Shown here piece after piece: positions 836-41,366 of a DNA stretch of 64,000 bases. This stretch comes from Dictyostelium discoideum. Taxonomy: Eukaryota. The notes below the pieces were generated by a model. It made no database searches. It worked only from the letters and a program-made list of their open reading frames with translations, and was not told the DNA's origin. Every line of letters begins with the position of its first letter. Position 1 is the stretch's first letter. The stretch is taken from NCBI GenBank assembly GCA_000004695.1, contig CM000152.2, forward strand, positions 4,256,001 to 4,320,000, in the 5' to 3' direction. The translations under genes and the position numbers were made by a program.

Positions 836-874
<39 letters not shown>

Positions 875-960
875 ATTGTGAGAGTGAGTGATTTTGTGAT
901 TATATTTATTAAATTATTTGATTTAAAATTAATTTATTAATATTTGAGTTATAGAAAAAA

Positions 961-991
<31 letters not shown>

Positions 992-1140: not shown

Positions 1141-1404
1141 TTTAAATTTAGTAATATGTAAATATTCCAAATATGATATTTATTAAATAAATATAAATTA
1201 GGTAAACAACAACGTGTGTGTGTGGTAATATTAAAAAAATTAAAAAAATTAAAAAAAAAAAATTAAAAAATTAAAAAAAACCAAAAAAAAAAATTAAAAA
1301 AAATTAAAAAAAATTAAAAAAAAAAAAAGATTGTAGGTGAAATTTCTATTTAAAAGTCATAAATAAAAAAAAAAAACCAGCTTGGAAACTTGCAAAAAAT
1401 AATT

Positions 1405-1412
1405 TTAAAAAA

Positions 1413-1475
<63 letters not shown>

Positions 1476-1500
1476 ACAAATAAATAAATAAATAAACAAA
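1405..1500. repeat. (AAAT)n microsatellite, about 24 units, in the intergenic region
   Basis: Direct read: aataaataaataaa... with two AAAC variants. Confidence 0.9.
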
Positions 1501-1592
1501 CAAATAAATATATAAATATATATAAATATAAATTTTTTTTTTCAAAAAAAAAAAAATAAAAAAAAAAAAATAAAAAAAATTAAACAAATAAA

Positions 1593-4272
1593 ATGGGAGG
1601 TTCATGGAAAGATAAAGCTTCTTCATATATTATTCAAGATTCATTAATTAGTAGTTCACAAGTTAAATCTCTGTCCAATAGTGCCATAGAAAGTTGTTTA
1701 AAAAATTTAGGAGTATGTTATTAAAAAATAAAAAAAAAAAAAAATAACTTTTTTCTTACTTACTATTATTATTATTTTTTTTTTTATTTTATTTTTTTTA
1801 TTTTTTTTTTTATAGTATATAAGTTACTTTTCAAATTCTATAAATGAAATGTTAAGTAAATGTGATAGTAGATATATAATATCAATATTATATTTAGTTG
1901 ATGGTATATTTAGAGTATTAAATAAAAATTATGGTGAAGAGAATAAAAAGAAAGAACCATTATTTTCACAATTAAATGAATCATTCTCTTTAATGTTACA
2001 ACAAAATGAAAAGAAGATTCTAGGCTCAACACCAGAAAAAGATTGTATAAAATTAATTAAACTACTTCAAATTTGGTTAAAACGTAATGATTTAGATCAA
2101 CATTTATTAAAGAAATGGGTTTTTAGAATTTCAACAGATTTAAATATTGATATAGATAATTTAGATTCATACCAAACTAATAATAATAATAATATAAATG
2201 AAAACAATACAACTATATCATCATCATCAACATTTGTAAATAAAAAGAGAACATTAGATAGTAATTTTGATATTGATGATATACTTGAGCCATCATCATT
2301 TAAACATCAAAAAGTAGATAATAGTATTGGTATAAACAGTATTAATAATAGTAATAAACTATTACAACAACAACAACAATTAAATCAATTATTAAAAGAG
2401 AATTTAATATATGGATTACCAATGGAGATGTTATTTGAAATTTTATCGAATTTATCAGTTGTAGATTTAGTTAAAGTTTCAAAAGTTAGTAAATTCTTTT
2501 ATAGTGTTGTAAATAATTTACCAAGTTGTACGAGTATATCATTTGAAAATATGATTTTACCATCAATTGATATGCAAAGATCATTGATTCAATTTAATTT
2601 AGTTGTAAATGTAAATCTATCCTTTAGTAGATTCGTTACAAATGATGTTATAATCACATTAGCAAAACATTGTAAACATTTGGAATCTTTAAATGTTAAT
2701 GGTTGTTTACAATTGGATTTAACCTCGATGATTCAATTATTAAGACATTCAAGAAATTTAAAATCTTTAAAAATGTCTCAAGTCGTTTGTGATGGTGTTA
2801 TGGAATTATCAAATAAATTAAAAAACACATCACAAAATTCAAATACTACTACAACAACAACCACTACCACAACAGCATCAAATACAAAACATAAAAAACA
2901 ACCAATACCATTTGGTAGATTAGGAAGATATCCAAATAAAAGAGCGAGAGCAAGAGAAAGAAAAGCAAGATTAAAACAAAAACACCAACAACAACAACAA
3001 CAAGCTAAAACAAGAAGAATAAAAGATAAAACCAAAGAGGTATTATTAGCTAAAGTTTTCTTTGATTTATTATTTAATATTAAGAATGGTATTATTGATG
3101 ATTCTGATGATATTGATGATGATAATAATAATATAAATAATAATAATGAAAATAAAAAAAAAGTCACTAAAAAGAAAAAGAAAAAAGAAGTCAAGGGCAA
3201 TGCTAGTGGTGAATTAGATCAAGAATTTATAGATTTAGTAAGTGATTGTGAAATGCGTGAACATGATGAAAATGAACAGAAACATATAGATATAGAAAAT
3301 AATTGTAATAATAATAATAATAATAATAATAGTAATAATAATAGTGATGATAGTAATGAAGAAGAAGATTATGAAACTAGTGAAGAAGAAGAAGAAGAAG
3401 ATAATGAAGATGGACATGGCTTTAATTATGATGATTATAGTTATCACTATGATTATGATTATGATGACGATGATGATGAATATAGAATTGGGAGAGGAGG
3501 AGGAGGAGGAGGAGGAGATGGAGGAGAAAAAGCAGTAGGAGAAGGAGGAGGATACAGTAATTCTCCTGTTAATAATAAAAAAATTAGATTAAGAGAATTA
3601 GATATTAGTTGTTGTCATCCATTAATATTTTTAATACTTCAAAATTATAACAAACCATTATCAACAAGTTTAGTTAAATTAAATATTGATTGTATGTGTG
3701 CTTCAATTGAAATTGGTGGTTATGCCGCTGGTATTAATAATATTTTTAGCAATTTTCCATTCCTATCAAAATTAAATTCATTATTTAATCCTATAATACA
3801 TAATAATAATAGTAATACAACAACAACAACAACCACCACATCAGCTACAAATACTAATGAATCATCGTTAACGAATAATATTCAAATGGTACCAAATAAT
3901 TTTAAAATTATTGTAAAATCAGATTCAATTTGGAGACGATTAATTTTTAATGATTCAAATGGTTTCGAAAAATTGATATTACAAAAACAATCACAATATC
4001 TACAACAACCAAATTCAGAATATTCAATTAAAAAATTTAGGAAATATGTTAATAAACGTTATTTATTTGGTACAACTTCAATTTATATGGCTTGTAAATA
4101 TGGAAATTTTAAAGCAATTGATACTTTAATGTCATTAAATTCAAATAATAACAATAGTAATAATAATTATAGTAATAATAATAATAATAATAGTAATAAT
4201 AATAATAATAATCATAATAACAATAATAATAATAATAATAATAATAACAATAATAATAATGATAATAGTAAC

Positions 4273-5303: not shown

Positions 5304-6400
5304 ATGGAAAATATTACTCTTGATCAATACCTTCAATCAGCAGTTGATGTTGTTAAAGAGATTGGCCCAATGATTTTAAAAAACTATAACAGTCGTTCAA
5401 AACAAATTGAATACAAAGGTGCTATTGATTTAGTTACTGATACTGATAAAGGTAAATTTAAAAAAAAAATTAAAGAAAAAAAAAAAAAAAAATTTTAAAT
5501 GATTGGATAATCTAATTTATAAATATTCTTTTCTCTTTCTCTCTATTTGTTTGTTTGTTTTATTTATTTATTTATTTATTTATTTTAAATTTAAATTTAA
5601 TTTTTAGCTGTTGAAGAACATATTATTAAAACATTGACAACTAAATATCCACATACAAAGATTTTAGGAGAAGAATCAACTAAAGATGGAATTTACAATT
5701 GGGGTAATGAACCAACATGGGTAATTGATCCAATTGATGGTACAACCAATTTCGTTCATAGATTCCCATTATTTTGTGTTTCAATTGCATTATCAATAAA
5801 CAAAGAAATTGTTGTTGCTTGTTTATATGCACCAGTATTGGATGAATTATTCACAGCAACTAAAGGTGGTGGTGCCTTTTTAAATGGTGAATCAATTTCA
5901 GTTTCATCTGTTGAACATCTTTCACAATCAATCATTTCAACAAATGTTGGTTATGATAGATCCGATAAAGGTATTGAATTTATGTTAACGTAAGTATAAA
6001 AATAATAATAATAATTAAAAATTGGGAAAAAAAAAAAAAAGTGTGTGAATTTGAATTGTTAATATTAATAATGATTGAAAAAAAAAATAAAAAAAATAAA
6101 AAAAATAAAAGTAATTTCAAAAATATTTTAAAGGATAATGTTCAAGCATTAAGATTCTCAGGTACAGCAGCATGGGAAATGGCAAGTGTATCATGTGGTA
6201 GAGTTGATAGTTTCTATGAATGGGGTATTCATCCATGGGATATTGCTGCTGCCTCTTTATTAATTACAGAAGCTGGCGGTGTTGTTGTTGACCCATCAGG
6301 TGGTAAATGTGATATGGAATCTAGAAAAGTTTTATGTGGTAATCCAAATATTGTTAATAAATTATCAAAATTATTAATTGAAAAACCAACTTCTAATTAA
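5304..6400 (+). CDS. Inositol monophosphatase (IMPase family). Exons 5304..5451, 5608..5989, 6112..6400, about 273 aa
   Basis: Motifs WVIDPIDGTTNFVHRFPLFCVSIAL and WDIAAASLLITEAGGVVVDPSGG are canonical IMPase signatures. Introns bounded by GTAAAT/GTAAGT donors and AG acceptors restore frame (..VTDTDK|AVEEHIIKTL..; ..IEFMLT|NFKNILKDNVQALRFSGTAAW). Confidence 0.85.
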
Positions 6401-9800: not shown

Positions 9801-10690
9801 AGTTTCTACTATAAAATAATATTCATTTTTAATAATTTAATTATATTTATTTATTTATTTGTATATATATATTTTATTAATTTATTTATTAATTATTTAA
9901 AAGAGGAGAGAAAAAAAAAAAAAAATTAAAATAAAAAATAAAAAAAAGGTTTGATTTAATATGAGACATTTGAATTTTTTTATTTTTATTTTTATTTTTT
10001 AATTTTTATTTTTTTTTATTTTTTTTTCCTATTGATTTTAATTACCTGACATATCTAGATATTTATAAATTTATTATTATTTAGTTTATTATGTTTGATA
10101 TTGTATTATTATTTTATTTATTATCTAATTTAATTTTAGTTTTTTAAAATCTTTATATTTTTTTTTTTCACTTTTTTATTTTATTTTTATTTTGTAAATG
10201 AACTCAATGAATTTTTTAATTTAATTATAAAAAAAATTATTTGAAAAAAAAAAAAAAAATAAAAAAAAAAAAAAAAAATTGTTTTTTTTTTTTTTCAAAC
10301 AAAATATGCATTATTTTTATTTTTTTTATTTTTTTTTTTTTATTTATTTTCTTTTATTTTATTTTTATATTTCCTTTTTTTTTTACCAAAATAAGAATGA
10401 TAAATGTTTTTTTATTAAACCAATTTAAATTGGCATTTTTTTATTTTAAATGAACAATCTCCATTACAAAAAATAAAATAAATTATCAAAAAAATAATTA
10501 ACCTTCAGTATTCGTCCATCGGTTAAGTTTTATCAATTTTGTCTTATTTATAAAAAATAGAGTTTTTTTTGAATTGGGTACCGAATGGATGAGATCTTAG
10601 GTCACACAGATTTAACCAAACTTTCCTACCCTTGCTTTAAATTATAAAAAATAATTTTAATGTAATATTAAATTTGAAAATATCAAAAAT

Positions 10691-10763
10691 GCCCGGCTAG
10701 CTCAGTCGGTAGAGCGCCAGACTCTTAATCTGGTGGTCGGGGGTTCGAGCCCCCCGTTGGGCG
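10691..10763 (+). tRNA. tRNA-Lys (anticodon CUU)
   Basis: gcccggctagctcagtcggtagagcgccagactCTTaatctggtggtcgggggttcgagccccccgttgggcg. This is 73 nt with a cloverleaf, A-box, B-box (ggttcgagccc) and anticodon loop ct-CTT-aa. It is followed immediately by a T-run (Pol III terminator). Confidence 0.92.
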
Positions 10764-10859
10764 AATTTTTTTCCAATACAACCACTTGTACGAAGTTCGT
10801 ATTTTTGAATGGTATATTAATATGAAAAAAAAAAAAAAAACAATAACAAAATACGTAAT

Positions 10860-12040
10860 TAGAAATCTAAATTAATATTTTTTATTAATAAAGATTTAAA
10901 ATAATTAATTGTATAGTGATGAACCTTCTAAAAATGAAAAGATTTCATATTCCACTCTACCTAATAAATGTTACAAACTAGAATATAAAAAATTAATTAA
11001 CTCTTTCAAAAGATCCCAGCAATTTTAAAGACCTAAACGATTTCTTTAAACATTATATTTAACTTCACTATATTTAAAATTCTGAATTTTGATAATTAAA
11101 TAAAAGGAATACCTACTTGACATTTTATAACTTGTGATGTTTGTGAATTAATAATTAGGTTTATAATCGACTATACATTGATATCAAAGATGCATAATTA
11201 GACTACAATAATATTCATAAAAAATGGTATTTTTTTTTTTTTATATAATCAACAATCTGACGTTTATTTGTTTGAATTTTTGGTGTTTTTGTTGTATCTC
11301 TTTTTGCCAACGAGGTGGATTTGTGGGGTTTATGGGAATTCCAAGTAGATTTAAGCTTTTCTCCAAAATCATGATCGATTTTAACTTCGTTGGTTTTGAT
11401 GGAACTTAGTTATCTCTCTTTTCTCTTTCTTCTTCTTGTATTTTGTAAGAAATACCACGTACTGGATAATTAGCAATACGTCTCATTAAATGGGTACAGA
11501 AACCTTAAATCTTGTTTCTGTACCCATACCTCTAGAGGTTTTGATAAAGAATAATCTTTTATTATTTGGTTTTTAATATTTTTAATTTGTATGATGTATT
11601 TGATTCTGTTACAAATTGGGAGGATGTCTTTTGATGATGCTAATTTAAGAATTATATCATAGTCTAATGTTGTGGCTTGGGTTTTAGTAGAGTTGATTTC
11701 AAATCCATATACATACTTGGTGAAATATCATTGCTATTAAGTTTTTATAGGAGAAATGTCTTGAGAGGTCATAATCTATGGCCTTGTAGCACCATATGAA
11801 GTGTGGTTTATGAAATCTTATATGAATGTAGTCCATGTTGATTTCGTAGTCTTTCTTCATATAAGGATTATTGGTGTGATTTTGTTTTATTGTTTATAAT
11901 CATTCATTCGTGTAACCAGTTAGATTTCCCGCCTGTTGATTTGAAGATGAATCTCGTTAGTTTGGTAGTGTTAATATATGAATATAAATAGCTCAAAATT
12001 TCTGTATCCCAAACTCTGCCTAACCAATTAAAGTATAAAT
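10860..12040. mobile_element. Probable tRNA-associated retroelement fragment (TRE/DRE-type, TRE3-like position). It lies downstream of two convergent tRNA-Lys genes
   Basis: The G/T-rich plus strand is not ordinary gene sequence. It has diverged similarity to 13700..14280 (for example atatcataGtctaatgttgtgg vs atatcataAtctagtgttgtgttg, and catatacatacttggtgaaatatcattgctatta vs catatccatatttggtgaataactaatgagatta). It sits 30-100 bp downstream of tRNA genes, where TRE3 elements integrate. It contains a perfect 13-bp hairpin at about 11485..11522. Confidence 0.3.
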
Positions 12041-12050
12041 AACCATATCT

Positions 12051-12061
12051 GGAATTGAACC
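12051..12061 (-). promoter_or_regulatory. External B-box (exB) about 32 bp downstream of tRNA-Lys(UUU)
   Basis: ggaattgaacc is the reverse complement of GGTTCAATTCC, matching the B-box consensus GGTTCGANTCC. This element is characteristic of Dictyostelium tRNA genes. Confidence 0.6.
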
Positions 12062-12092
12062 TGTGATCTATCTTATACTAAATCTAAAATTT

Positions 12093-12165
12093 CGCCCAAA
12101 GGGGGGCTCGAACCCCCGACCACAAGGTTAAAAGCCTTGCGCTCTACCGACTGAGCTATCTGGGC
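12093..12165 (-). tRNA. tRNA-Lys (anticodon UUU), copy 1
   Basis: The reverse complement reads gcccagatagctcagtcggtagagcgcaaggctTTTaaccttgtggtcgggggttcgagcccccctttgggcg. This is 73 nt with a T-run downstream. Confidence 0.92.
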
Positions 12166-12222
12166 ATTTTTGGAAATTTCGAAATTAAAAACAACTACAG
12201 AACGATTTTTTAAGCCTGGAAG

Positions 12223-12999
12223 TTGTTGCACCACCCAAGAGAGCGAATAACTCTCAAACTAAACCAAGTCAAACCCAAATACGAAAACAAACAAAAATTA
12301 AAAGTAATCTATAGAAACATGATGGATATCAAATACAAGGGATGGAACAAACACCAGCCAACAACAGGTCAAAAACTGATTCAAAAGAACATTAATCACC
12401 CAATTCTACCATTTAGAGAAGCCAGATCAATCACAACTATCAAAGGAAGAGACTTAGCGTGGAGATATCTACTCAAGGCACTTCCAAAACACCATGGGGA
12501 GAATTGTCACTCATGTAAAGAAGAAGAGTCGTCTATGCACATCTTCTTCGAATGCAAATCAATAAAACAGAATATCGACTCAATCTATCAAAAGGTCTGT
12601 AAAGACTCCAACAACACTTACCACGGTCCATGGAGCGAAAAAGTTCTCGGAAAACTACTCACACCATTCTCATCAAATCTGATAGGAGCCATTATGGAAT
12701 CGATATGGTACAGAAGAAATCAAATAAAATTCAACGATAACACTACAATAATAACAGAGAACCAAATAATTCATAAAATCAAAAAAGCGAGAGATGCCGA
12801 ATGGGATAGAACAAGAAAGATAGTAGAAAAGCAACTACGTCAAGAACTAAGATGCACTGATAACCGAGAGTCAATCAATCGGACCGCATCAATAAAAAGA
12901 AGACTCGAAAAATTCAGCCACAACTGGAACTCGAAACTCATGACCATAAACATCCCGGAACACTTCATACCATACTGCTCATATAACACCAACTCATAA
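12223..12999 (+). pseudogene. Truncated retrotransposon ORF2 C-terminal segment (258 codons)
   Basis: The ORF has no upstream start, and the 5' truncation is typical of non-LTR copies. The CCHC-like motif is noted above. Confidence 0.55.
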
Positions 13000-13062
13000 A
13001 AAAAAAAAAAAAAAAAATTATAACAATAATAATAATAATAATAATATAATAATAATAATAAT

Positions 13063-13093
<31 letters not shown>

Positions 13094-13106
13094 TAAGAAT
13101 AACAAG

Positions 13107-13164
<58 letters not shown>

Positions 13165-13190
13165 AAACTCTCCTAGAACACACTCAAATT
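13000..13190 (+). repeat. A-rich / (AAT)n / oligo(A) tract following the ORF2 stop
   Basis: Direct read: a18, then (aat)n, then about a60. Confidence 0.85.
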
Positions 13191-13214
13191 GAGTGATGTT
13201 ATTACGATTTTTTT

Positions 13215-13420
13215 TAACCATCTCTTTTAGAGGCCCTGTAAAAATATTACAAATAAAATGAGATCTAGCATCTCAAGGAGATGCAACTAATAATTGTCTG
13301 ATTAAAAAAATAAAAAAACTAGATTGTTAACACTTACTTTATGAGGCCTAGTAAACTACAAATAAAATGGGACCTAGAATCTACAGGAGAGGCAACTAAA
13401 CATTTCACTATCCAATACAA
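13215..13420. repeat. Two ~100-bp tandem repeat units
   Basis: ttagaggccctgtaaaaatattacaaataaaatgagatctagcatctcaaggagatgcaactaa... is repeated as ttatgaggcctagtaaactacaaataaaatgggacctagaatctacaggagaggcaactaa... Confidence 0.7.
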
Positions 13421-13611
13421 AAAAGGTCGATTTTTAATTTGAATAATAAAATTTCATATTTGAAATGAAAGCGATAGTTGTTTCATTACAGTCACACTAG
13501 AAACAACTTCAATTAATTATTGGAATATAATTGTGTAAATATTTTATGTAAAAATTGATGTTTATGAAATGTTGGATTTAACTTATGTTTAGTTAATGAT
13601 TTAATAAGTTA

Positions 13612-13622
13612 GGAGTTGAACC
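13612..13622 (-). promoter_or_regulatory. Solo exB-like box with the copy-1 downstream flank but no adjacent tRNA
   Basis: ggagttgaacctgtgatctatcttat matches 12051..12076 (ggaattgaacctgtgatctatcttat). The expected tRNA position upstream is occupied by T-rich unrelated sequence. Confidence 0.4.
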
Positions 13623-13639
13623 TGTGATCTATCTTATTT

Positions 13640-14290
13640 TTTTTTTGATATAAATAAACTATTGTAGTATACAATTAGTATGTTATTTTTATTTATTTAT
13701 TTTAGGTTTTTTAGTTTTTGTGAATTTAAAATAGTATGTTATTTTAGATTAGGTAATTAATAATTAATTGGTGGTGTAATTGTTGGAATTGGTTCATTAG
13801 TGTTTATGCTCCATTCTTTTTTAAATTTTTTGATGGTTTCGGACCATTGGGTTTCTTTTTGAGTTTTTGTGAGGTTGTTTTTAATTGAGTATTGGTTAAA
13901 GTTCTTGAATATTCCAATCTTATTAGCTTGTGCCATTTTGATTTTAATATATCATAATCTAGTGTTGTGTTGTTTATTTGGTTGTTCTAATTATCAATTG
14001 ATTGAGTTATATTGATGTCAAATAATGATTTGCATAACCATATCCATATTTGGTGAATAACTAATGAGATTATGTTCCAATATGCATGTGTTCTGACTAG
14101 ATCAAGATTTGTGTTTATATAATTCCAGTTGAACCTGTATTTTTTATATTGTGCGTTTTCTGCAAAATGAAAATTAATATTGATAGTTGGATCTGGTTTA
14201 AATGCTTTGTTGTTTGTTTGTGGTTTATAGATGAGTGTGTATAATTTTGTTGTTTGGTTTTTTGTTAGTGACCAGTTTTTGATAGTGATC
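13640..14290. mobile_element. Second diverged copy of the tRNA-downstream retroelement fragment
   Basis: It is similar to 11600..12040 and ends in gatagtgatctatcttatactaaat(t)taaaatttcg, the same tRNA-downstream flank as copy 1. Confidence 0.3.
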
Positions 14291-14314
14291 TATCTTATAC
14301 TAAATTTAAAATTT

Positions 14315-14387
14315 CGCCCAAAGGGGGGCTCGAACCCCCGACCACAAGGTTAAAAGCCTTGCGCTCTACCGACTGAGCTATCTGGGC
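14315..14387 (-). tRNA. tRNA-Lys (anticodon UUU), copy 2. The mature sequence is identical to copy 1
   Basis: The same 73-nt sequence is present. The shared 3' flank is tgatctatcttatactaaat, but this copy has no exB. Confidence 0.92.
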
Positions 14388-14636
14388 ATATTTGAAAATT
14401 TTAATTTTTTTACAAAATCACATTGATTTTTAATGACAATCGAAAATTTAAAATTTTAAATAAAAATAAAACAAAAGCAATAGAAATCTTTTTTTTTTTA
14501 AAAACAATTCTATCAAGATTTGAATTGAAATTGATTGAGGTATTAACTTCATTCTAAACCTAAAAAAAAAACTTTTTTTTAAATTTTTTTTTTTTTTTAT
14601 TTTTCTATTTTTTTTTAGAAAACACATCGCACCACC

Positions 14637-23236: not shown

Positions 23237-24707
23237 TATTGATTATTAATTTTAAAAAAAATAGTTAAATGTAATTCATTTAATTTTATTAATTTGTATA
23301 TTTATTAGATCATTATTAGTAATAATTGATCCATCATCACCAAATAATTCAATATTACATATTGATACAGAATCATGGTTAATTTATATTTATACTATAT
23401 CATATTATGTAGTTGGTGAGATTATACCGGGAATGTTGTTGATAGTGATTGAATTTCTATTACCATATCATAAAAGAAAAGATTTTATAAATATTGGTGG
23501 AGAATTATCAAGTTATCAAGATGTTTGGAAATCAGAGAATATTGCAATTCATGAATTGCTAGGAATGGGTGGTAGTGGTGCTATGGTGCATAAATGTACC
23601 GTAAAGAAAGGTCCATTACGTGGTGGTACTTTTGCAGTGAAAGTAATGAAAGATTGTACAAATGAAGATATTGAATCGTTAGAGAATGAAATTAGAGTCT
23701 ATGAAAAACTAAAGTCACCCTATATCGTCTCCTATCAAGGTTCAAGTAAAGTCGTTGGTTCAAGTGGTCAAATCTTTGAGATTCGACTATTCATGGAATA
23801 CATCCCACATACATTAGATAAATATCTATTAGCAAGGTCAGTTTGTGGTGATTCAAATGGTGGTGGTTCAAGTAGAAATTTAAAAAATTATTTTTTACAC
23901 ATGCAAGAATATCAATCTTCACCACAATCTTCAATTTCATATTATCAGAATAATAATAATAATAATAACAATTCACCATTAATACAACCACAACAACAAC
24001 AACAATATGTCTATCCATATTATTTTAGATATAGTCAAGTTGTTTGGTATTTATATCAAATTTCAATTGGTTTGGATAATTTACATGCAAATAAAATTGC
24101 TCATAGAGATTTAAAATCAAATAATATTTTTGTAACTTTATCAGAGAGTGAAGTTAAAATTTGTAAAATTGGTGATTTCGATATCTCTAGATCTTTTAAT
24201 AATCCAAAAGTTTTAAATGTTTTATCAAATCCAACAGCTTTACAACAACAAAAATTAAATAATTTCTTTCAATCAGCAACAACAACAACAACAACAGAAC
24301 AAACAACAGAGCCAATAGAGGTAGCAGCAACAACAACACCTCAAACAATTCATTCAGCATTTCAACATGATATTTTATCTTTTGGTTTTATTGTTTTAGA
24401 CTTTTTAACTTTATCAAACTATAGTTGTTTTGACTCAAAATTTGATACTTCAAACTACTATGATGATGATAAATTCAATAATAAATCAAATACAAAAATT
24501 AAAAAACCAGATTTACCAGATTATATAAAAAAAGATGAAAAACTTTGGGAACCTGTCATTCAACTTTATAAAAGTTGTACATCTGATGATCCAAATAAAC
24601 GACCTTCTTCACTTGGTGTTAAATTTCATTTAGCCAATCTTTATAAAGATATTATAGAGTCTGGCACTGAAGTTTGGTCAATTGAAAAAGATTCTTCAAG
24701 TAAATGA
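22355..24707 (+). CDS. Multi-pass (about 7 TM) membrane domain fused to a C-terminal Ser/Thr protein kinase domain. Exons 22355..22632, 22778..23171, 23265..24707
   Basis: Exons 1-2 encode about six hydrophobic helices (IIPLILLCFYSVNGFVAVISSLV, IKIFFYSLLILQCLCRCIIIGWGM, NFPSLLFISYAGLVALQMIQFL, NILIFFNLFMYFGMFLLFGIA, IYIVLDCFYFVCLLLLLIFHSYVGW). Exon 3 opens with another (LIYIYTISYYVVGEIIPGMLLIVIEFLL), then kinase subdomains GMGGSGAMV, FAVKVMK, HRDLKSNN and DFD. Splice sites (GTAAGA/GTAAGT donors, AG acceptors) keep one frame with no stops. Confidence 0.7.
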
Positions 24708-26029: not shown

Positions 26030-27583
26030 ATGGATAAAAATAATAATAATAATAATAGTAATGGGGGACATGAAAATTTATTTAAAGATCTTCAAAATCA
26101 AAAAAGAGTTCAAAATCCATCATTTAGTTCTGGTCAAAGTAGAACAGTGCCATCAATTTCTGCTCGTGGCGTGGCACCAATTAGCTCATCATCAAGTTCA
26201 TCATCTATTTCAACAACTAATAACACTACTACTACTACTACAAGTGGTACTGGTAGTACATCATCACCAGTATCAAAAGGTGTACCATTAATACCAATTG
26301 GTGCATCAAGATTTAAACAACAACCATCAACAGATGTTTGGAGATCAGCAAGAGGACAACAATTATCAGAATCACTTTGGTCGTCTTTTAAACAAGCATT
26401 GCAAAATTCTCAAAATTCTCAACAATCTTTATCACAATCTTTATCACAATCTCATTCAACAAATAGTGAGGTATGTATAAATATATATATATTTTTTAAA
26501 ATAATTTTAATTTTTACTAATTATTTTTATTAATTATTTTTTTTTTTTTTTTTTTAGATTAATAATATTTTATTGGAGTTTGTAAAACATTATAATTCAG
26601 AATATGATAAATGGAATGTTGAAATGGGAGTTGATTATGCTAATACAAAAGTATATGGAATTAAATTATATTGTACACCAGTATTAGATATCCAAACCAC
26701 ATTATATTTGACTAGACAACTTTGTTCTTATGTTTTAAATTTATCAAAGGCATTAACTGATGATAATTTGGATATACCAGATGGTTTACATTTCATATGT
26801 TTAATAAACATTTTATCAAGATCACCATTGAATTCAACATTATTACATCAAGAGAATGCATTGGCACATCCATTTCAAGCAGCACGTCTTGCATCTTATA
26901 AACTCTCTTCTTTTAGAGACAAAAATAATCCATCCTTTACAAAATGGTGGCCATACCTTAAAGTTTTATTAGCTAATTGTTGTCAAATTGCTACAAATTT
27001 CGTACATGATAAACAAAATTTATCTTTTAATTCTTTAAGGTATGGCAATGTAAATAATAATAATAATAGTAATAATAATAATAATATTGTAAATAGTACC
27101 AGTTTAAGTAGTGGTAGTTTACTTTCAAATGGTGGTGGTATTAGTACTAGTGAACCAGAGATTTCACCATCAACATCACCATTAACAGGTACAACTCCAA
27201 CATCACCATCAAGTTCTTGGTCATCATCTTCAATAACTAATCATCAAATTCAACATCAAATTTTAATGCAACAACAACAACAACAACAAGCTCAACAACA
27301 ACATACTCAACAATACTTTAATACGATTGGACAAAGTAGTAGTTATTCCTATACAAACGTTATCAATGGTGTTTCAACCAATAATAGTACAATAACAGCA
27401 ACAACTACAAGTAATTTCTTAATTCAACATATATTTAAACTTGGTACAATTTCAATTTTGATGGATTCTTTACAATTCTTTAATGATTTCTTTAAAACTC
27501 TTCAACCAAAAGATTCAGAAGATTCATTTAGATTATTGATTATTGATACATTAGGTATTTTAATTAGTGGTAATGGTGGTTTG

Positions 27584-27625
<42 letters not shown>

Positions 27626-28540
27626 GCAACATCAACAAATACAACACCAAATACAATAATTAATAATACAACAATAAATAACAGCGGTTTAACAAATAGT
27701 ATTAATAATAATAATGGTGGTAATAATAATTTAAATAAACTTAAAGAACCAGGTAACGAAATTAAAACAATTATAAATTGTATTGGTATGAAAGCGTATA
27801 TTAAAACAAGTAAAAAAGTAACATCATTACAAAACGAATTTCAATTTCAATTACATGTTATTAGGGTGATTAAAGAATTGATTTCAAATAATTTAAATAA
27901 TGCAAAATATTTTAATTCTCATAGAGGTTTTGAAAAAATTCAAGAGGTTATATTATGGGTAACTCAATGTTTTAAACCAACAGATTCACATACATTCACT
28001 GATGAAAGTTGTTTAGATTTTGATACTTCAATGCCTGCTCAAGAATTATCTGCCTTATTAATTGGTGCAACTTCTTCAAATTCTTCTAATAATCTACCAA
28101 ATTTAACAAATTCAATATCATCACCCTCACACTCATCCTCCTCCTCCTCCTCAACAACAACAAATATTAATAATAGTAATAATAATACAGCAACAGCAAC
28201 AACAACAACAAGTAATGTAATAATTCCACCAACAATGTATGATAGTTTAAATTCAGTTTTAAATTCATTAAAATATACGACTTATTCAGAGAAATCATCA
28301 TCACTTATAAAATCACCACCAATTATTGTTAAAAGAAGTAAAGTTGTACAACTTTCACAATTGTTTCAAGTTTTACATTCATTTTCTTTTACACTTGTAC
28401 CATTTTCAAAAATTCAAACTAATTCCTCCTCTTCTTCTGGTAATTTAAATTACAATATATATTCCTCCTCTTCAGCATCATTTATAAATAATAATAATAA
28501 TAATAATAACTGTAATATATCATCACCAACAAATCAATCT

Positions 28541-28616
<76 letters not shown>

Positions 28617-28858
28617 TTTTACCAAGATCAAATTCATCTTATTCAATATTTAGAAGAGGTGATAGTTTAAATACAATCATTGATATCAATCAAGATAATA
28701 ATAATAGTAATAGTAATAGTAATAATAGTAGTACACTTGATATTTTAAATAATAGTCAAGATACAATTGTAGATAATAATAATGGTAGTAATATTGATTT
28801 TGAAGCAACAATAACTACTAATACAACAACGGTCGTGACAGCAACCGTTAATTTAACA

Positions 28859-28895
<37 letters not shown>

Positions 28896-30338
28896 TGATT
28901 GATGGTAATACCGAAGTAACTGGTGGATCAGCACATAATAGTTGGTCAAGTTATACAAATATAAATGAACAATTTCAACAATTATCATTAACATCATCAA
29001 CGACAGCAACAGGATCATCACCAACATCACCAACAGCATTTCAATATCAATCAAAACCAATTGATAAAATGTTTGTGAATACATTATTAATTGAAACAAT
29101 TTTTGAAAAATTATTTTCACAATTAAATCTTAGTGCTTTAAATGAAAATCATTCAACAACTTCTTCTTTACCAATTAGTCAAAATTTAAGTGATGATTCC
29201 TCAAATACAAATACAAATAATAATAATACATCATTTGGTAAAATTTATATTTCAGATAATTTACAACAAAATCCAAACACTGATAAATCATTATCATGTG
29301 GTAAAATTTTTAATAAGATTAAAAATTCAACACCAGAACTTCAATTACAAATAATTGAATATTTAATTAAATTAGTAATAGAGAATCCATATTGTTTACC
29401 AATTCTTAGAAGATTTAATCTTTGGGAATTAATATTTTCTGATAATTTTTATTATTCATCACCACAAGCAACTTTAAATGATGATGATATTGAATATTTA
29501 TTAAATTCAACCACCACTACCACCACCTCATCATCAACTAATATTTCAGAAGAACAATTAAAGAAACGTAAATTATATTTATTTAATGGATTAAGATTAG
29601 GTTGTTTAGGTTTAATTCAATTCTTTTCAACATTTAATAATAGAGATAATTTTGAAGAGATTTGTATAATTTTAACAGAGATGAGAAAATCATTATTAAA
29701 ATCACCAGCATCAGTGATTGAGTTATGTCAATTATTAATTAATATCACTAAATCAAATCCTCAAGGTACAATTCAATCATTGATTAAATTAAGAATTTTC
29801 CAACAAATTCCACAAATGATTCAAGTCCTATTCAAATATGAACAGGCTAGTAACTCTCAATTTGGTTTATTACATAAGAAAGCTAGAAATATCATTTTCT
29901 CTTATCTAGGCCAATTGATAGTTCACGAAGAATTATCTTATCATGCAGTTGTTGAAAAAGAATTGATAGATGTTTTATTTTTATTATTAAGAAAAGTTGA
30001 AACTAAAACTTTTTCAATTACTCAAATATTTTTCTTAATGAAATTAAATGTTTCATCTTCTTCACCATCAGTTACAACTTTATTATCTTCTTCTTCACAA
30101 GTATTAAATTCATATCAACAACAACAACAACAACCACAACAACAATCATCACAACCACAACAACAATCATCACAACCACAACAAATTCCACAATCCCAAC
30201 TACAACAACAAAATCAAACACAGTCATTACAATCATCATCATTATCATCAACATCATTATTATTAACATCACAACATCAACAACCATCAACATCATTATT
30301 ATCAACATCACAGTTTTCATCATCATCATCCTTATTGC

Positions 30339-30421
<83 letters not shown>

Positions 30422-30441
30422 CCACAACTACTACAACAAAC

Positions 30442-30484
<43 letters not shown>

Positions 30485-30706
30485 GTTCAAACTCCATCAT
30501 CACCTCAAACATTAGCATCATTATTAGGAAATTCAAGTTCAAATACATTAACATCATCATCATCAACATTATCATTAAATGAATCATCAACATTATCAAG
30601 ATTACCAACATCAAATAATTTATCAGAATTATATAGGACATATATTTCCGAGTTATCAATGATTAAAGAAGAGACATCATGTACTTATGATTTTAAATTT
30701 GATTAA
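26030..30706 (+). CDS. Large low-complexity protein (about 1530 aa) with globular N- and C-terminal regions and an ARM/HEAT-like C-terminus. Exons 26030..26470, 26558..30706
   Basis: Exon 1 ([18 protein letters not shown]...STNSEV) ends at a GTATGT donor. The acceptor ttttAG at 26557 continues [21 protein letters not shown]... in frame. The track M at 26573 is a TTG. Non-repetitive segments ([23 protein letters not shown]; [56 protein letters not shown]) argue for real coding. The stop lies only 8 bp before the next gene's ATG. Confidence 0.6.
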
Positions 30707-30714
30707 TTTTATCA

Positions 30715-31035
30715 ATGTTGGATGGTATTAGACAAATTATTAAAAACAATCCAAAGAAACAAAATCTATTTAAAAAGTTTCGTGTTTTCATTAAAATCGT
30801 TAACTTGGTTAATGCTGATGATAAAAAAGAACGTTTGTCAGTTTTATGTCATTCAGTATTACGTACTGTAATTTTATTAATGGCAAATAATCCAAAAATT
30901 AAAAAACATTTTCGTAATCATATTGGTTATGATACAATTAAAGATTTAATTATTAAATCTGAAGGTATTGTTTCTGAAACAACAATGAATATTTTATTTG
31001 ATATGGTAATTATTTTTAATTTAATAATGATAATC

Positions 31036-31124
<89 letters not shown>

Positions 31125-31147
31125 TTGAAATAATATTAATATTAATA

Positions 31148-31187
<40 letters not shown>

Positions 31188-34100
31188 TTGTTGATGGTGA
31201 ATTTGATATTGAATATAAATATGTTATTCAAAATCCAGATTCATGTTTATTAATATTTAATTTATTAAAATATTTCCCAACTAAATTACAACATGAAATA
31301 TTGGATAGATTTACAGTGATGGTAGAGAAATGTACAACTAATCAATCAGTTTGTTGTAATTGTCATTTAATTTATAATTTATTAGAGGCAATTTATAAGG
31401 GTCAACCAATGGAAGTTACAACAAAGATATTGAAATTAATTGAAAGATTAGGTATTCATAGTGTTACAGTTAGAGAATTAAAGAAATTATTTGGTTTATT
31501 AAAGAGTGAACAAGGTGATTATCTTCCTCCAACAACATCGGCTCTATTGACAACATTACAAAATATATCAAATTCACGTAATCCAGGACCACAGGTTTAT
31601 TTCGATTTCGATGGAAAAGATAGTTGTATCATATTGCCAACATTTGATAAATGGCCATTTCCAAAGGGTTTTTCATTTTGTACTTGGGTTAGAATTGAAT
31701 CATTTGTTGATCCAACCGGTACACCAGAGTATAAACCAAGATTATTTAGTTTCCTCTCTGATAGTGGTTGTGGTATTGAGGTGTTGTTCATTTATCAACA
31801 ACTTCAAGTATTGACAGTGAATAATCACCAAAGTAAAGCCGTATTTCAATCACCACCTACCTTTGTCGAAAGGGAATGGTATTTCGTATCGGTGGTTTAT
31901 TCAATTAATTTAATCTCTTCTAATGAGATTAGAATTTATATTAATGGTCAACAGTCAGCGAAATCATCCATTAAATTGAATATATCAGGTACACTTTGGA
32001 ATCATTTCAAAATTGGTAATAATAGTAAGAAAATGTCTGGTGAACGTGAATGTCCACTCTATGGTCAAATGGGTGCTTTCAACATTTTCGATGAATCATT
32101 ATCACCAAGTCAAATTCAAGCAATCTATACATTGGGTCCAAATTTTAATACCTCTTTTCAAGATGTTGAAGGTTCAACTAAATCTGCTCACACTTTTGAA
32201 TCTTCACTTACTAGTCATCTCTTTTTAAATTATAATTGTCGTGCATTAGATGGTGATCTTTGTTTAGATAATACACCCGATATTGGTGGTGATAAAAATT
32301 ATGATGCAACTTTAGTCTCAATTAATCCATGTGTATCAAGAGATATTAAAGATATTATCTATTGTTTAGGTGGCATTAAAGTATTATTTCCATTAATTCA
32401 ACAAATTAATAATCCAATATCACCTTTATCTTTAGAATTAATTACAAATGAAAATAATAATAATAATAATAATAATTTATCATTGTCATCACAACAACAA
32501 ACATTAGAACAATTACAACAATCTATAAATATTAAATTAACAAATCAAGTTTTAGCATTATTTAAATTTATGTTAAAAGAGAGTGAAGCAAATCAAGAGG
32601 AAATGTTACGTTGTCAAGGTTTCTCTGTTATGGGTTATTTATTACAACAAATTTCACCAGAATATCTAACGATTGGATGTACAAATATCTTTATTGATAT
32701 GTCAAATCAAATTTCTGATCCAACATTGGTTGAAGAGGTGTATAGTAATTTAATGTTAAATTTCTGTATTTGGATTAAAACTAAATATGAATTACAAAGA
32801 AATCTATTGGTAATCATTAAACAAATCGTTTTTGAAAAGTATGATCAAGTCTCTGATATCATTACAGTTCAATTGATATTAGATATAATGAATGATTTCT
32901 ATTGGTATGATGATTCAAAGAATGAAGCACATCGTAATCATCATTTCTTTAATAAAGATATCTTATCGAAACGTCCTTCAATTTCAAATATTCGAGAATT
33001 ACGTCAAATCCTATTTGAAGTTTTACGTATTCTATTACGTCATCAAAAATCAACAGATATTCAAGCTATCATTAAATTTTTAATTTATTGTAAAGATTAT
33101 CAACAATTAATTGAAATGATGGAATTTGTATTAGGTTTATTACCATCATTAGATAATATTAATAATAATAATAATAGTGGTAATAATAATAGTAATAGTA
33201 GTGGTAATAATAATAATAATAATGGTAATAATAAAAATATTAATTTTGGATTAAGTAGTTCAGGTTTAAATGGTAATGGTCATAATTGTCAACAATTTTT
33301 TGATGAAATTATGGGATTAGGTGGTACAGATGTATTTTTAACATTATTAAAGATTGATGATGAAGGTGTTAGAAATACTGCTATTCAATTGATTAGTAAA
33401 ATTCATGGATTATGTAATCATTCTCAAAATAAAAAACATAAAGCAAATTTATTTCAAGATTCAATTATTATTACTCGTTGTTTACATACATTCCCAATGA
33501 CAGAGGAAACTTTTAGATATTTATTATCGTTTGCTATGGGTTACGATTTTACACCTGCAAATAGCACCAGTCACAATAATGGTCAAATGGTACCACCATG
33601 TTTAGATAAACATAAAGTCATAAAGAATAATGAGATCCTATCGGTTATATTCAAACTACTATCAAATACTGATGTTATATTGGTTCAAACGGTTTTACAA
33701 GAGATTAAACTCTACATATCCAATGAAGAATCATCACATGTCAATAGAAATGCATGTCTATCAATTGATAAATGGTTCGATCATTTATTCGCAATCATTA
33801 GTAGTGTAGAGAAAACCGATACTCAATATTCAAATGTAACGGATTTAATCATTGATATCATAAAGATTTTGGTAATTCATTCATTCGATGAATCAAAAGG
33901 TATTCAAAAAACATTGGAAATCGTATTGGCAACTCTTAGACCTTATGATGAACGTGGTGTATTAGATTATCATTCATTGGCTCGTACTTTATTTTTAAAT
34001 ATCGTTCAATCCATTAAATCTAAAGCTCTAACTACCATTGGTGATAATCAATCACCATTAAAGAAATCAAAGAAAGCTTTTATTGAAAATTTAATTCAAT

Positions 34101-35099
34101 TCTTTATTTTAACTGAAGAATTTATATTTTATTCTCCAAAAGGTGGTAATCATGATTTACATTCAAGTTTATCATCAATTAGAACTTCAATTTTAGGTGG
34201 TGGCGGTGGTTTCAATGAATTTGGTATTGGTAGTAGTACTATAGTTACTTCATCAGCTCATTCAGCATCATCTTCAGTTCATAGTAGTTTTGATGGTAGT
34301 TTCTCTCCATCTTCACCACAATTATTATCATCATCAACTTCATCAACATCACAATTACAACAACAACAACAACTTCAACAACTTCAACAACTTCAACAAC
34401 AAGGTCAATCAAAGAGTGGATCAAATACACCTTCAAATAGTAATCATGGTAGTTATAATTATAATAATAATAATTCACCAAATTTAATATCATCTTCAAA
34501 TTCTTTATTAAATTCACCATCATCAATTGGTCAATCATTATCTTCATCATTTAGTTTATCATCATCATCAAAAGAAGTTAATATTGGTGGTGGTGGGGGT
34601 ATTGGTGGTTTTAGTAAATTACATTATAATAGTGAAACTAAAGAATGGGAAGATACATTATTAGTTAAAGAGATACTTGATCTAGTTGATACATTAAAGC
34701 TATTGGATAATTTAAGTGAAAGTGATTTTTCAACTTCAAATATTCAAGCAACAACATCAAAATCAACATCAAATTTAATGTTTACAACTCATTATCATAG
34801 AATTTTCCTAAGATTTACATTGGAAGCAATTAAAATTTGTAATAAACAAGAACCTTTACAAACTTTGATGTCTCATGTTATGAGATTGAAAACACTCTCT
34901 GAAAAAGATCGTCAAAAAGTAGAAAATGATACAATGAGTAATAATAGATTAACTTTTATTTTATCTCATTTAGCTAAAGCATTAAGATCAATCATTGATT
35001 TAAATTTACCATTACATCAAAAAGCATTAGTACCATTAATGAAAGATATCATTCGTAAATTAAATTCAACATTAATTAGTACATTATCAAAACAGCAGC

Positions 35100-35161
<62 letters not shown>

Positions 35162-38100
35162 ATTCATCAACATCAATCTGTATCAGGTCCTTTAAATCTT
35201 TACCAATTATCATTACCCCAATCAGCATTGTCGCAATCTCAACAATTTATAATTCAACAAACTCAACAAATTTTAAATGGTGTTGGAGTTGGTGCAGGAA
35301 ATTCATCACCATCGTCATCATCATCATCATCATCAAACTCTGTAAACATTGATCAAAGTGAAATATCAGGATGGGTTGAAGAATTAACTGACTCAAGTAG
35401 AATTGTCGAATTTTGTTCAATTGTTGTTACATCACCAAGATGGTCACAAATCGTTCAATATATTGATAATCAAACTTATTTTACAACAGTTGAAGAGAAA
35501 TCACTTTATTCTTGGTTAGAGAAGAGAAAGAAGAAATTAACAAAGGTTGTATTGAATACTGATGAAAAAGAAGCAGAATCATTCAATGCCGCAGAGAGAA
35601 AAGCTGATAATGATTTGAATTCAATTCATGTTAAACTTTGGATGCCAGAATGTGAAAGACGTGCATTACATCTTTATAAAGCAAGAGAATTACGTAATCA
35701 AACCACTGTTCAATGGAGAAAGATTTTAAGATCTCTAACTAATGAACGTGGTCCTTGGGGTACAACTGAATCAATCGTTCATTGGAAATTAGATAAAACT
35801 GAAAACTCTTCAAGAATGAGAATTAAATTAAAAAGAAATTATAAATTTGATGAACATTTAAATTGTGCAATTAATGATTCAGAAATTCAAGATGATCATA
35901 ATAATAGTAATAGTAATAATAATAATGATTCAAATAATTCTGATGGTGAACATTTATCAGAAAGTGCAAATTTACTCTCAATTAAACCAAATGAAAAACA
36001 ACAACAACAACAACAAAGTGATGAAGTCGATTCTGATTGGACAATGGTACCAAAGGATATTGATAGTGAAGAAAATATTGATAGTTTAATTCAACAACAA
36101 CAACAACAGCAACATCAACAACAAAAAGAAAAAGAAAAATTAATTTATTCAACAAGTTGTCATTGGATTACACCATCAAGTTGTAAAAAAGGTAAATTAG
36201 AAATTACAACTTTTAATTTAATTTTTACTGAAGAAGAGGAATTACCACCACCATCAACTACCACTACAAATACAACAAATACAACAAATACAAATTCAAC
36301 AACAAATGATTCAACATTTTTAAAAATTAAAAGATGGCCAAATGAAATGATTAAAGATGTTCATTTAAGACGTTATTTATTAAGAGGTAGTGCAATTGAA
36401 ATATTTATGCGTGATAAAACAAATTATTTATTTAATTTCAAAAAGAATGAAAGAAATAAAGTTTATAATAAGATCAATAGTGTAAAGAGAGAGTTTTCAA
36501 AGGAACCAACATTATCACCATCCGATATGTTAAAGAAAGCAACATCAGAATGGCAAGCTAGAAGAATATCAAACTTTGATTATCTAATGACATTGAATAC
36601 AATAGCAGGTAGAACCTATAATGATCTAACACAATATCCAGTATTCCCTTGGGTGATTGCAGATTATACATCACCAGTGTTGGATTTAAATAAAGCAGAA
36701 ACTTTCAGAGATTTATCAAAACCAATTGGTGCATTAAATGAAAAGAGATTGGAAATCTTTAAAGATCGTTATGAATCATTCGATGATCCAGTGATTCCGA
36801 AATTCTATTATGGCAGTCATTATAGTAGTGCTGGTATTGTATTGTTTTATTTAATTCGTTTGGAACCATTCACAACTCAGTTCCTTAATCTTCAAGGTGG
36901 AAGATTCGATCATCCCGATCGTATGTTTGACAGTATAGCATTGGCATGGGATAATTCATTGACCTCTTCAACCGATGTCAAAGAGTTAATACCCGAGTTT
37001 TACTATATGCCAGAGTTTTTAACAAATCATAATCATATCAATTTTGGTATTAAACAAAATGGTATTGGCATTGAAGATGTTCTTTTACCACCATGGGCTT
37101 CATCACCATCGGATTTCATTCGTATCAATAGAGAGGCATTGGAGAGTGATTACGTTTCAAGTCATCTTCATGAATGGATCGATTTAATATTTGGTATTAA
37201 GCAACGTGGTAAACAAGCCAAGGAGGTATTCAATGTTTTCTATTATCTAACTTATGAAGGTTCTGTTGATATCGATTCCATTGAGGATGAAACAACTCGT
37301 CGTGCAACTGAAAGTCAAATCAATAATTTCGGTCAAACACCAACTCAACTCTTTTCAAAGAAACATCATATTCAACGTGATCCTTTGAACGAATCTCATA
37401 TCTCAATTTTGAAAACTCCTCCAAATCAATTACAAGCTTACTTTTTAAAGATTACCAATAAGAATCCAATCGTTTACGTTTACATTCCAGAGCCAAATCC
37501 AATCATGTCCTATTTGGTTGCTGATAAAGTTACGGTCATTGATAAATCTAGAACCACTACCAATCATAAATGGTTCCCTTCCACTCCAAATGATAAGATC
37601 TCACCATTCACTTTTGAATTGGATCCATCTTCAACCACTAAACGTAGAATTGGTTTACCATTTGCAAATGATGTAACAATCTCTCCAAATTGTTTTGCTA
37701 TCACCTCTGATGGTAGATATGTTATTAGTTGTGCTCATTGGGATAATAGTTTCAAACTATCATTTGTTGATAGTGCAAAATTAATTCAAAGTGTTGTAAA
37801 ACATAAAGATACTGTCACTTGTTTATCTTTGGCTTCTGATGGTCAAACTTTAATCACTGGTTCAAAAGATACAACCGTAATGGTTTGGAGAATTGCAACA
37901 ACCAATAAAAGTGGTGCTCCAAAATTCAATGATGTACCTGATCATATTCTTTATGGTCATGATGATGAAATCACCTGTGTAGATGTAAATGTTGGTTTAG
38001 ATATCTCTATCTCTGGTTCAAAAGATGGTACTTGTATCATTCACAACTTAAAACATGGTGAATATGTTAGATCAATTTATTTACCAAGACAATCTCCAAT

Positions 38101-38937
38101 TAGTTTAATTGCAATTTCAAATCAAGGTTATATTGTAATTTATTCACAAGTAAGTAAAAAAAAAACAAAATTTTAATTTAATTTAATTCATTTTTTTTTA
38201 TATTATTTTTTCAATATTTTCATCAATTATTTGCCAAAAAAAAACTTTAATTATATACTACTCTTTTTTTTTTATTATTTTGTTATTTTATTTTAGTGTG
38301 GTAATGATTCATTTGTAAGGATACATTTGAATTTATTTGTTCAACCCACACACACATCACATCCACACCCACACTTTTTTTTTTTCTCACACACCTAAAA
38401 CAAAGGAATATTTAAATCAAAATCTTTTTTTTTTTTTTTTTTGTTTTTTCAATAATACATGTAAATTTCATAAATAATTCGATTTCTCGTTTCGTTTATA
38501 AACAAATATGTTAAATTATAATAATCAATACTAATTTTTATTATAAATTTTTTTTTTTTTTTATTTTAAATTTCAAATTCACTCAGGCCGATTTAATGAT
38601 TTATCTATACAGTATAAATGGTGGACTCTTGAAAACAGTTGATACACACGAAAGATTACATAGTATTATAATAAGTAAAGATTCAGAGTATTTAATTACT
38701 GGTGGCGAAAGAGGGGTTGTTGTTATTAGAACACTTTTCAATTTAAAACCAACTAATCATAAATTAGTGTTTGGAACTCCAATTCATTCTTTAGCCATGG
38801 CATCCGATCAAAAACATTTAATGGTTGGTTTAGAAGATGGTAGATTATTAATTATTGCATCTAATAGTGCATCTCCTCCAACAAATTATTATTCCATTAC
38901 CAAATTCCTCATCTTCATTACCTTCATCATCCAATAA
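30715..38937 (+). CDS. Neurobeachin/LRBA-class BEACH protein (LvsA-like): ConA-like domain, ARM region, PH-BEACH, C-terminal WD40. Exons 30715..31005, 31187..38149, 38587..38937, about 2534 aa
   Basis: The N-terminal exon and following sequence are colinear with the NBEA N-terminus ([17 protein letters not shown] ~ NIRMKFAVLIGLIQVGEV; [20 protein letters not shown] ~ LLVGGEFDLEMNFIIQDAES; [16 protein letters not shown] ~ WPYQNGFTLNTWFRMD). The BEACH domain ([34 protein letters not shown]...[28 protein letters not shown]) is highly NBEA-like. The WD40 region is present (HWDNSFKLS...[11 protein letters not shown]...). Introns at 31006..31186 (GTAATT...AG) and 38150..38586 (GTAAGT...AG) are phase-consistent. 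Confidence 0.85.
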
Positions 38938-39824: not shown

Positions 39825-40131
39825 ATGAATAAATGTTGTATATGTATTAGTGGTGAACCAGGTGTTGGTAAATCGTCAATTGTCCAACAATTTGTAAAAA
39901 ATGATTTTTCAACACAATATACACCAACTTTAGAGGATTTTTATAATTATGAGTTAAATTTGGATGAAGAAAAATATAATTTGGAAATAATTGATACTGC
40001 TGGTCAAGAAGAATTTTGTGATTTAAAAAATAATTATATATTAAATGGAAATGCATTTATAATAGTTTATAGTATTTGTTGTAAAGGTTCTTTTAAAGAA
40101 GTAGTATGTATTTTAAATTATTTTTTATTTA

Positions 40132-40210
<79 letters not shown>

Positions 40211-40729
40211 TAAAAAAATTAAAAGAAAAATATAATGGATAATATAATAAATATAAAAGATTGTCAAAATATTCCAATAATAATTGTTGGTAATAAAATT
40301 GATATTGACGAAAAAGAAAGAAAAGTCTCAACATTGGAAGGTAAAAATTTGGCCAAACAATTAAATTGTTTGTTTATTGAAACAAGTGCAAAACAAAATT
40401 TAAATATTTCAAAAATTTTTACAACATTGGTAAAAGATTGGAATGAAAAACAACAAAATATTAAAAAATTCTCTAAAAAAAGTTCATACTCAATTAAAAA
40501 CATTAATTGTTCATCAACAGTAAAAAGTAAAGAAAAACAAATAATAATTTCTGATATTAATGCTTATGAAATTTCATTTCAAAATAATAGTCTCAAAAAG
40601 TCAAATAGCTCTGATAATTTTAATCATTCTTCTCATAAAACAACAATTAAAATAAAACAAAATATCAGTGTGGATTCAATTCAAAAGAATAATGGAAAAA
40701 TTTCTAAACCAAAATGCCCTGTCCAATAA
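39825..40729 (+). CDS. Ras-superfamily small GTPase (divergent Ras/Rap-like) with a C-terminal CAAX-like CPVQ. Exons 39825..40103, 40226..40729
   Basis: G1 GEPGVGKSS; effector-region T in YTPTLEDF; G3 DTAGQEEF; G4 NKID after splicing (..SFKEV|KNIMDNIINIKDCQNIPIIIVGNKIDI); G5 ETSAK. The intron 40104..40225 contains (TAT)23. Confidence 0.8.
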
Positions 40730-41270: not shown

Positions 41271-41366
41271 TGGAGAAGAAGGGTATCGATCCCTTTACCT
41301 TATGGAACTCTGATTTTCGTTGCTGTTTATGCAAACCATACGCTCTACCATATGAGCTACATCCCC
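41271..41366 (-). tRNA. tRNA-Ala (anticodon UGC) with a 23-nt intron after position 37
   Basis: The reverse complement reads ggggatg-ta-gctc-atatggta-gagc-g-tatgg-ttTGCa[taaacagcaacgaaaatcagagt]t-ccata-aggta-aaggg-atcgata-ccctt-cttctcc-a. G3:U70 is the universal Ala identity pair. Anticodon stem tatgg/ccata is perfect, and the T-stem aaggg/ccctt pairs. One U6:U67 mismatch and A54 are atypical. A T7 terminator lies right after the 3' end. Confidence 0.6.

Follow-up and report, generated by a model that had tools for sequence, protein, structure and literature searches.

Within the 64,000-nucleotide stretch of DNA analysed here (the window), two giant open reading frames (ORFs) follow one another on the plus strand at a distance of 8 bp and in different frames, the first ending with its stop codon at 30706 and the second starting with an ATG at 30715. 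These coordinates, given in a preliminary description of the DNA, were confirmed, and they raise the question of whether the ORFs are two genes or the parts of one. Judging from sequence comparison, the two ORFs are most probably (rough probability 0.9) the halves of a single BEACH gene of the LvsA/neurobeachin/LRBA class that has been split by a small frameshift. The product of such a gene would have about 4,067 residues and would comprise, from its N-terminus onwards, an extended ARM-like region, the Neurobeachin alpha solenoid and the ConA-like, DUF4704, PH-BEACH, BEACH and WD40 domains. Its reading frame would be broken by a −1-class indel within 30698-30709, in the simplest form by a T missing from GAT TTA ATT, and the ATG at 30715 would be an unremarkable Met codon inside the gene, placed 8 nt downstream by coincidence.

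Organization of the Locus

The product of the upstream ORF (1,529 aa) is encoded by two exons (26030..26470 and 26558..30703, plus strand). Exon 1 comprises 147 codons from the ATG at 26030 to a GTATGT donor at 26471, with residues 83-147 colinear with the Acytostelium subglobosum protein described below, and intron 1 (26471..26557) has 87 nt and 95% A+T and ends in an AG preceded by a T-run. The upstream frame then remains open over 26558..30703 and closes with TTT GAT TAA (30698-30706), the stop codon TAA lying at 30704-06. This upstream-frame part of exon 2 (1,382 codons) encodes the ARM-like region at the N-terminus together with the beginning of the Neurobeachin alpha solenoid. Inside the solenoid it carries a poly-Q/Ser low-complexity tract encoded by CAA repeats (30053..30619), an insertion of about 190 residues that is absent from both of the orthologs described below in MAFFT alignments; a 195-aa minus-strand ORF (30072..30659) is an antisense artefact of the same repeat. 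The last 28 codons before the stop (30620..30703) are conserved with the orthologs and are required for the Pfam profile of the solenoid to cross the junction.

The spacer between the two ORFs consists of 8 nt, TTTTATCA (30707-14), and is followed by ATG TTG GAT GGT from 30715, in a frame shifted by −1 with respect to the upstream frame. The downstream frame is closed by a TGA at 30700-02 and open from 30703, so that the overlap of the two open frames is 1 nt. The product of the downstream ORF (2,534 aa) is encoded by three exons (30715..31005, 31187..38149 and 38587..38934, with the stop codon at 38935-37), all on the plus strand. The first of these (97 codons), in which exon 2 is predicted to continue in the shifted frame, is followed by an intron of 181 nt (31006..31186; GTAATT to an AG behind a T-run, 97% A+T), and the large exon 31187..38149 encodes, according to Pfam, the remainder of the solenoid, the ConA-like domain, DUF4704, DUF4800/DUF1088, PH_BEACH, BEACH and the start of the WD40 domain. 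The last exon (38587..38937 including the stop, 116 codons) encodes the end of the WD40 propeller and lies past the end of the ORF at 38176, beyond a last intron of 437 nt (38150..38586; GTAAGT to CAG, 82% A+T); the exon junction at this intron (IVIYSQ|) matches the sequence of the A. subglobosum protein. The last intron is unusually long and less AT-rich than the other two, contains a CA-rich block, ccacacacacatcacatccacacccacac, at about 38346-38375, and matched no Rfam family at the gathering threshold.

The two open frames are 1,382 and 2,329 codons long in DNA of 71-77% A+T, and are therefore real coding sequence and no chance pattern. The G+C content of the window is about 13-39% per 1-kb window, mostly below 30%, and CAA and AAT repeats are present, as is typical of Dictyostelium.

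Domain Content

Pfam searches with the downstream ORF gave, in this order, the Neurobeachin solenoid (PF20425), Laminin_G_3, DUF4704, DUF4800/DUF1088, PH_BEACH, BEACH and NBCH_WD40. The solenoid remainder runs to about 31564 and is followed by the ConA-like lectin domain (Laminin_G_3, PF13385, 2.3e-16; about 31610-32119) and then by the DUF4704 solenoid (PF15787, 2.3e-64; from about 32288). PH_BEACH (PF14844, 7.8e-30; about 36158-36475), BEACH (PF02138, 1.7e-124; about 36548-37369) and the WD40 propeller (PF20426, 4.3e-52; from about 37613) occupy the C-terminal part in this order, and the last exon completes the propeller. Metazoan neurobeachin/LRBA and plant SPIRRIG likewise contain PF20425, PF13385, PF15787, PF14844, PF02138 and PF20426 in conserved order; in the window gene, however, the part that precedes the solenoid is much longer than in these proteins. 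The ConA-like domain of human neurobeachin is preceded by only about 230 residues, which would explain why the downstream ORF, taken alone, looked "complete".

The PF20425 match starts at residue 2 of the downstream ORF but only at position 196 of the 423 in the profile, and covers positions 196-421; the downstream ORF thus opens inside a domain. No Pfam family was matched by the upstream ORF on its own, and the upstream block alone gave nothing even at an E-value of 10. Fusion of the downstream ORF with the conserved C-terminal block of the upstream ORF and the last 28 residues before the stop carried the PF20425 match to profile position 113 and raised its score to 145.5 bits, whereas the control fusions (four shuffles, one reversed block and one unrelated block) scored only 122-129 bits. 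A natural read-through construct carried the match to profile position 66. The domain is accordingly present in the window but divided by the stop, whereas the orthologs carry profile positions 51-421 and 1-422 on one chain. A sequence search of the PDB with a junction-spanning construct returned chance matches only.

Orthologs Continuous across the Junction

An exhaustive HMMER search with the upstream block 29054-30070 as query found two proteins that span both ORFs. One, P0001 (3,333 aa), was matched over residues 731-1001 with an E-value of 4e-39 and 41% identity, and is the A. subglobosum protein XP_012759282.1, encoded by a single uninterrupted coding sequence; the other, P0003 (3,183 aa), was matched over residues 588-828 and is encoded by one uninterrupted ORF on a Logan contig. 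By blastp, residues 47-1000 of P0001 and 132-827 of P0003 are colinear with the upstream ORF, including the upstream-frame part of exon 2, and residues 1037-3310 and 867-3167, respectively, are colinear with the downstream ORF. In both proteins PF20425 crosses the position equivalent to the stop (residues 892-1263 in P0001 and 685-1111 in P0003). The A. subglobosum protein resembles the product of the window gene in its colinearity over both ORFs, with 38-59% identity in conserved blocks, and in its Pfam architecture, but is uninterrupted and free of poly-Q/N insertions. The preliminary description had listed, among several candidates, one gene of about 4,000 codons on the scale of LvsA that was broken by a frameshift or an assembly error, and had held that a single fused protein in related species would refute two separate genes; P0001 and P0003 are two such proteins, and they support that candidate.

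The A. subglobosum gene contains an intron of about 78 nt (GTATGT..CAG; DF837573.1, about 4194..4271) that interrupts the K1020 codon and lies 17 codons before the stop-equivalent position. At the corresponding place the window has continuous coding DNA, and so the position of this intron differs between these two dictyostelids.

A word-indexed protein search found nothing, and it also missed a 502-aa piece of P0001 that is present in its collection. The candidates that it listed (at least 2,109, at least 8,000 and at least 8,000) were mostly chance word matches, and its negative results are untrustworthy for eukaryotic proteins rich in low-complexity sequence.

The Junction

In MAFFT alignments the conservation with the orthologs reaches the last codon before the stop and continues through the apparent spacer, and the junction residues of the window align with AKIKEDASPDGGFEITLALLDGIRQVIKANPKK. 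The sequence of P0001 across the junction is LDEIFNVYIGHMAKIKEDASPDGGFEIT LA LLDGIRQVIKANPKKQQLF. In the downstream frame the similarity found by tblastn begins at nucleotide 30703, four codons 5' of the ATG at 30715. These four codons (30703..30714, LILS) cover the stop and the 8-nt spacer and align with ITLA in P0001 and LLLQ in P0003, and the Met at 30715 pairs with a Leu in both orthologs. The pairing of Met with Leu and the start of the similarity at 30703 argue that the ATG at 30715 is an internal codon. The preliminary description had stated that homology to neurobeachin begins at Met1 of the downstream ORF. This holds for the Pfam match, which starts at residue 2, but that match enters the profile at position 196 of 423 and the similarity to the orthologs starts upstream, at 30703. 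The use of this observation as an argument for a separate start was mistaken, since the entry is mid-domain, the similarity begins four codons earlier and the Met aligns with Leu.

Enumeration of possible edits indicated that single-base insertions give one open frame only after positions 30700-30705, and that deletions of 2, 5, 8 or 11 nt rejoin the frames only within 30690-30715. The lesion site (30698..30709) includes the TGA of the downstream frame at 30700-02 and the TAA of the upstream frame at 30704-06. Adding one T is the simplest repair and gives GAT TTA ATT TTA TCA ATG instead of GAT TAA; loss of that T would by itself create the in-frame TAA and displace everything that follows in the gene by one base. 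With the one-base repair the junction is two residues longer than in both orthologs, and a model with an excess of 5 nt fits the orthologs gap-free; the alignment scores of the 1-nt deficit and the 5-nt excess (179-184) are too close to separate the two models. The alternative readings to be told apart over 30650-30760 are GATTTAATT and GATTAATT. A metagenome scan for the junction, with 0-6 variable bases allowed, gave no match. A nonsense mutation by itself, another candidate of the preliminary description, is excluded, because the two halves lie in different frames.

The arrangement is thus very probably a lesion of the sequence or a sequencing error, and no unusual gene arrangement. Both halves are otherwise intact, from which it follows that the lesion would be either an error or very recent. 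We infer that a sequencing or assembly error is the likelier origin, a real recent mutation being possible though rather unlikely. Loss of LvsA reportedly causes defects in cytokinesis and in the contractile vacuole, and a null allele with such defects would be unlikely to be carried by a propagated strain; for this reason, and because both halves are otherwise intact, an error is favoured over a real null allele. The sources for LvsA loss are Kwak et al. 1999 and Gerald et al. 2002, in the passages of PMC3315810 and PMC7079120 that cite them. A real lesion would make the strain a natural lvsA truncation, informative on the N-terminal half of BEACH scaffolds, but nothing here favours that. No frameshift-like pair of ORFs was seen elsewhere in the window, where the one candidate (5601-6397) proved to be an ordinary intron, and the sequence is therefore without visible error-proneness.

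Alternative Explanations

That absence of any other sign of sequencing errors in the window would sit well with a real gene fission or a bicistronic arrangement, in which a 1,529-aa ARM-like protein and a 2,534-aa BEACH protein would be made separately, the latter from the ATG at 30715 by means of an internal promoter or of reinitiation. The length and otherwise intact state of both ORFs and the presence of an ATG just 8 nt past the stop are also in its favour. We nevertheless regard this explanation as very unlikely. The putative initiator Met pairs with Leu in both orthologs and is preceded by four codons of similarity, the split would fall inside a Pfam domain, midway through the solenoid, and the protein is a single chain in both related species. 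Nor is there any AT-rich DNA of intergenic or promoter-like character: the spacer measures 8 nt, and the junction has 77-78% A+T, as does coding DNA (71-77%), against 85-90% in flanking intergenic DNA. In general, reinitiation by eukaryotic ribosomes is not known to be efficient downstream of an ORF of 1,529 codons. The bicistronic arrangement proposed in the preliminary description is thus left unsupported, with ortholog similarity running from 30703, ahead of the ATG, across a junction that does not have the A+T content of intergenic DNA.

A real frameshift that is tolerated, the LvsA-type BEACH protein being made as two polypeptides, an N-terminal solenoid half and a BEACH half begun at Met 30715, that work together or independently, seems hardly probable. 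If it were true, the locus would offer a natural split of a giant BEACH scaffold, whose N-terminal 1,500 residues would need no covalent attachment.

Also very unlikely is a repair of the mRNA by the cell, whether by removal of an intron within 30650-30780 that is short or non-canonical, by programmed −1 ribosomal frameshifting or by transcriptional slippage. Of all GT..AG pairs enumerated, sixteen, including an 80-nt candidate (30652..30731), would restore the frame without a stop, and in A. subglobosum a genuine intron lies 17 codons before the equivalent site; the window DNA, however, is continuous coding sequence at the position of that intron, and the 16 candidates have 71-78% A+T, poor donors (GTTATC, GTACTT, GTTCAA) and no T-run acceptor, whereas the three real introns of the gene have 82-97% A+T and GTATGT, GTAATT or GTAAGT donors. 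The suggestion of a non-canonical intron accordingly found no support, poor sites and low A+T being common to all 16 pairs. The 80-nt candidate was rejected on its composition, on its splice sites, on the conserved residues that would be lost and on a Pfam score that fell to 123.7 bits, with the match starting from position 202. An intron at 30681..30730 had been reported in the preliminary description to create a TGA; a TGA does result, but the AG lies at 30730-31, so that this intron would have 51 nt and leave the frame unchanged, with the stop at 30866-68. Programmed frameshifting finds no support: the last 120 nt contain no X XXY YYZ heptamer in frame, the frames overlap by 1 nt only, the one slip allowed would take tRNA-Asp from GAU onto UGA, and the downstream 94 nt fold no better than shuffled sequence (z +0.95). 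All A or T runs near the site are of 4 or fewer.

Relation to LvsA

LvsA of D. discoideum, like the window gene, has the Neurobeachin solenoid, ConA-like, DUF4704, PH-BEACH, BEACH and WD40 domains in the same order, and in its high A+T content and abundance of CAA repeats the window DNA resembles that of Dictyostelium. The length of LvsA we take to be 3,619 aa. Counted from Met449 (MDSLQFF...), the upstream ORF contributes 1,081 aa up to its end, which together with the 4 junction residues and the 2,534 aa of the downstream ORF gives exactly 3,619. This exact sum suggests that the window contains the lvsA locus, that the published protein reads through the site and that the one-base model of the lesion is the right one; from the 2-nt and 5-nt models 3,618 and 3,617 aa would result, respectively. 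The reconstructed 3,619-aa protein and the 1,529-aa and 2,534-aa products had no match in the collection when looked up by exact sequence, and the identification with D. discoideum lvsA is therefore a suggestion that rests on this length. Look-ups of the ORFs 30715-31128, 26573-30706, 38596-38937 and 23433-24707 likewise returned no record, and neither the length nor accessions of LvsA were found in the literature searched. The name LvsA stands for large volume sphere A (Kwak et al. 1999, as cited in a passage of PMC3315810).

The window gene differs from LvsA in its interrupted ORF and in that both the ORF and the similarity to A. subglobosum reach 448 residues upstream of Met449, the start that a length of 3,619 aa would imply. 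These residues 1-448 of the upstream ORF correspond to 26030..27374, and residues 83-299 align with residues 47-257 of the A. subglobosum protein at 47% identity. On these comparisons, the true protein may have about 4,067 aa and a conserved N-terminal extension beyond that start. The value of the single-gene reading lies mainly in annotation: automatic gene calling would split the locus into two genes, one for an orphan "hypothetical" protein (1,529 aa) and one for a BEACH protein truncated at its N-terminus, where the correct annotation would be one protein of about 4,067 aa.

Other Features of the Window

Three tRNA-Lys genes, one CTT and two identical-scoring TTT copies, lie within 3.7 kb (10690..14388). 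On the minus strand, a 96-nt tRNA at 41271-41366 was detected by Rfam and missed by ARAGORN, and so probably contains an intron. Directly downstream of the BEACH gene, 39825..40729 holds a gene for a Ras-family small GTPase (GEPGVGKSS...DTAGQEEF), interrupted by a short intron whose in-frame reading is a poly-Tyr run.
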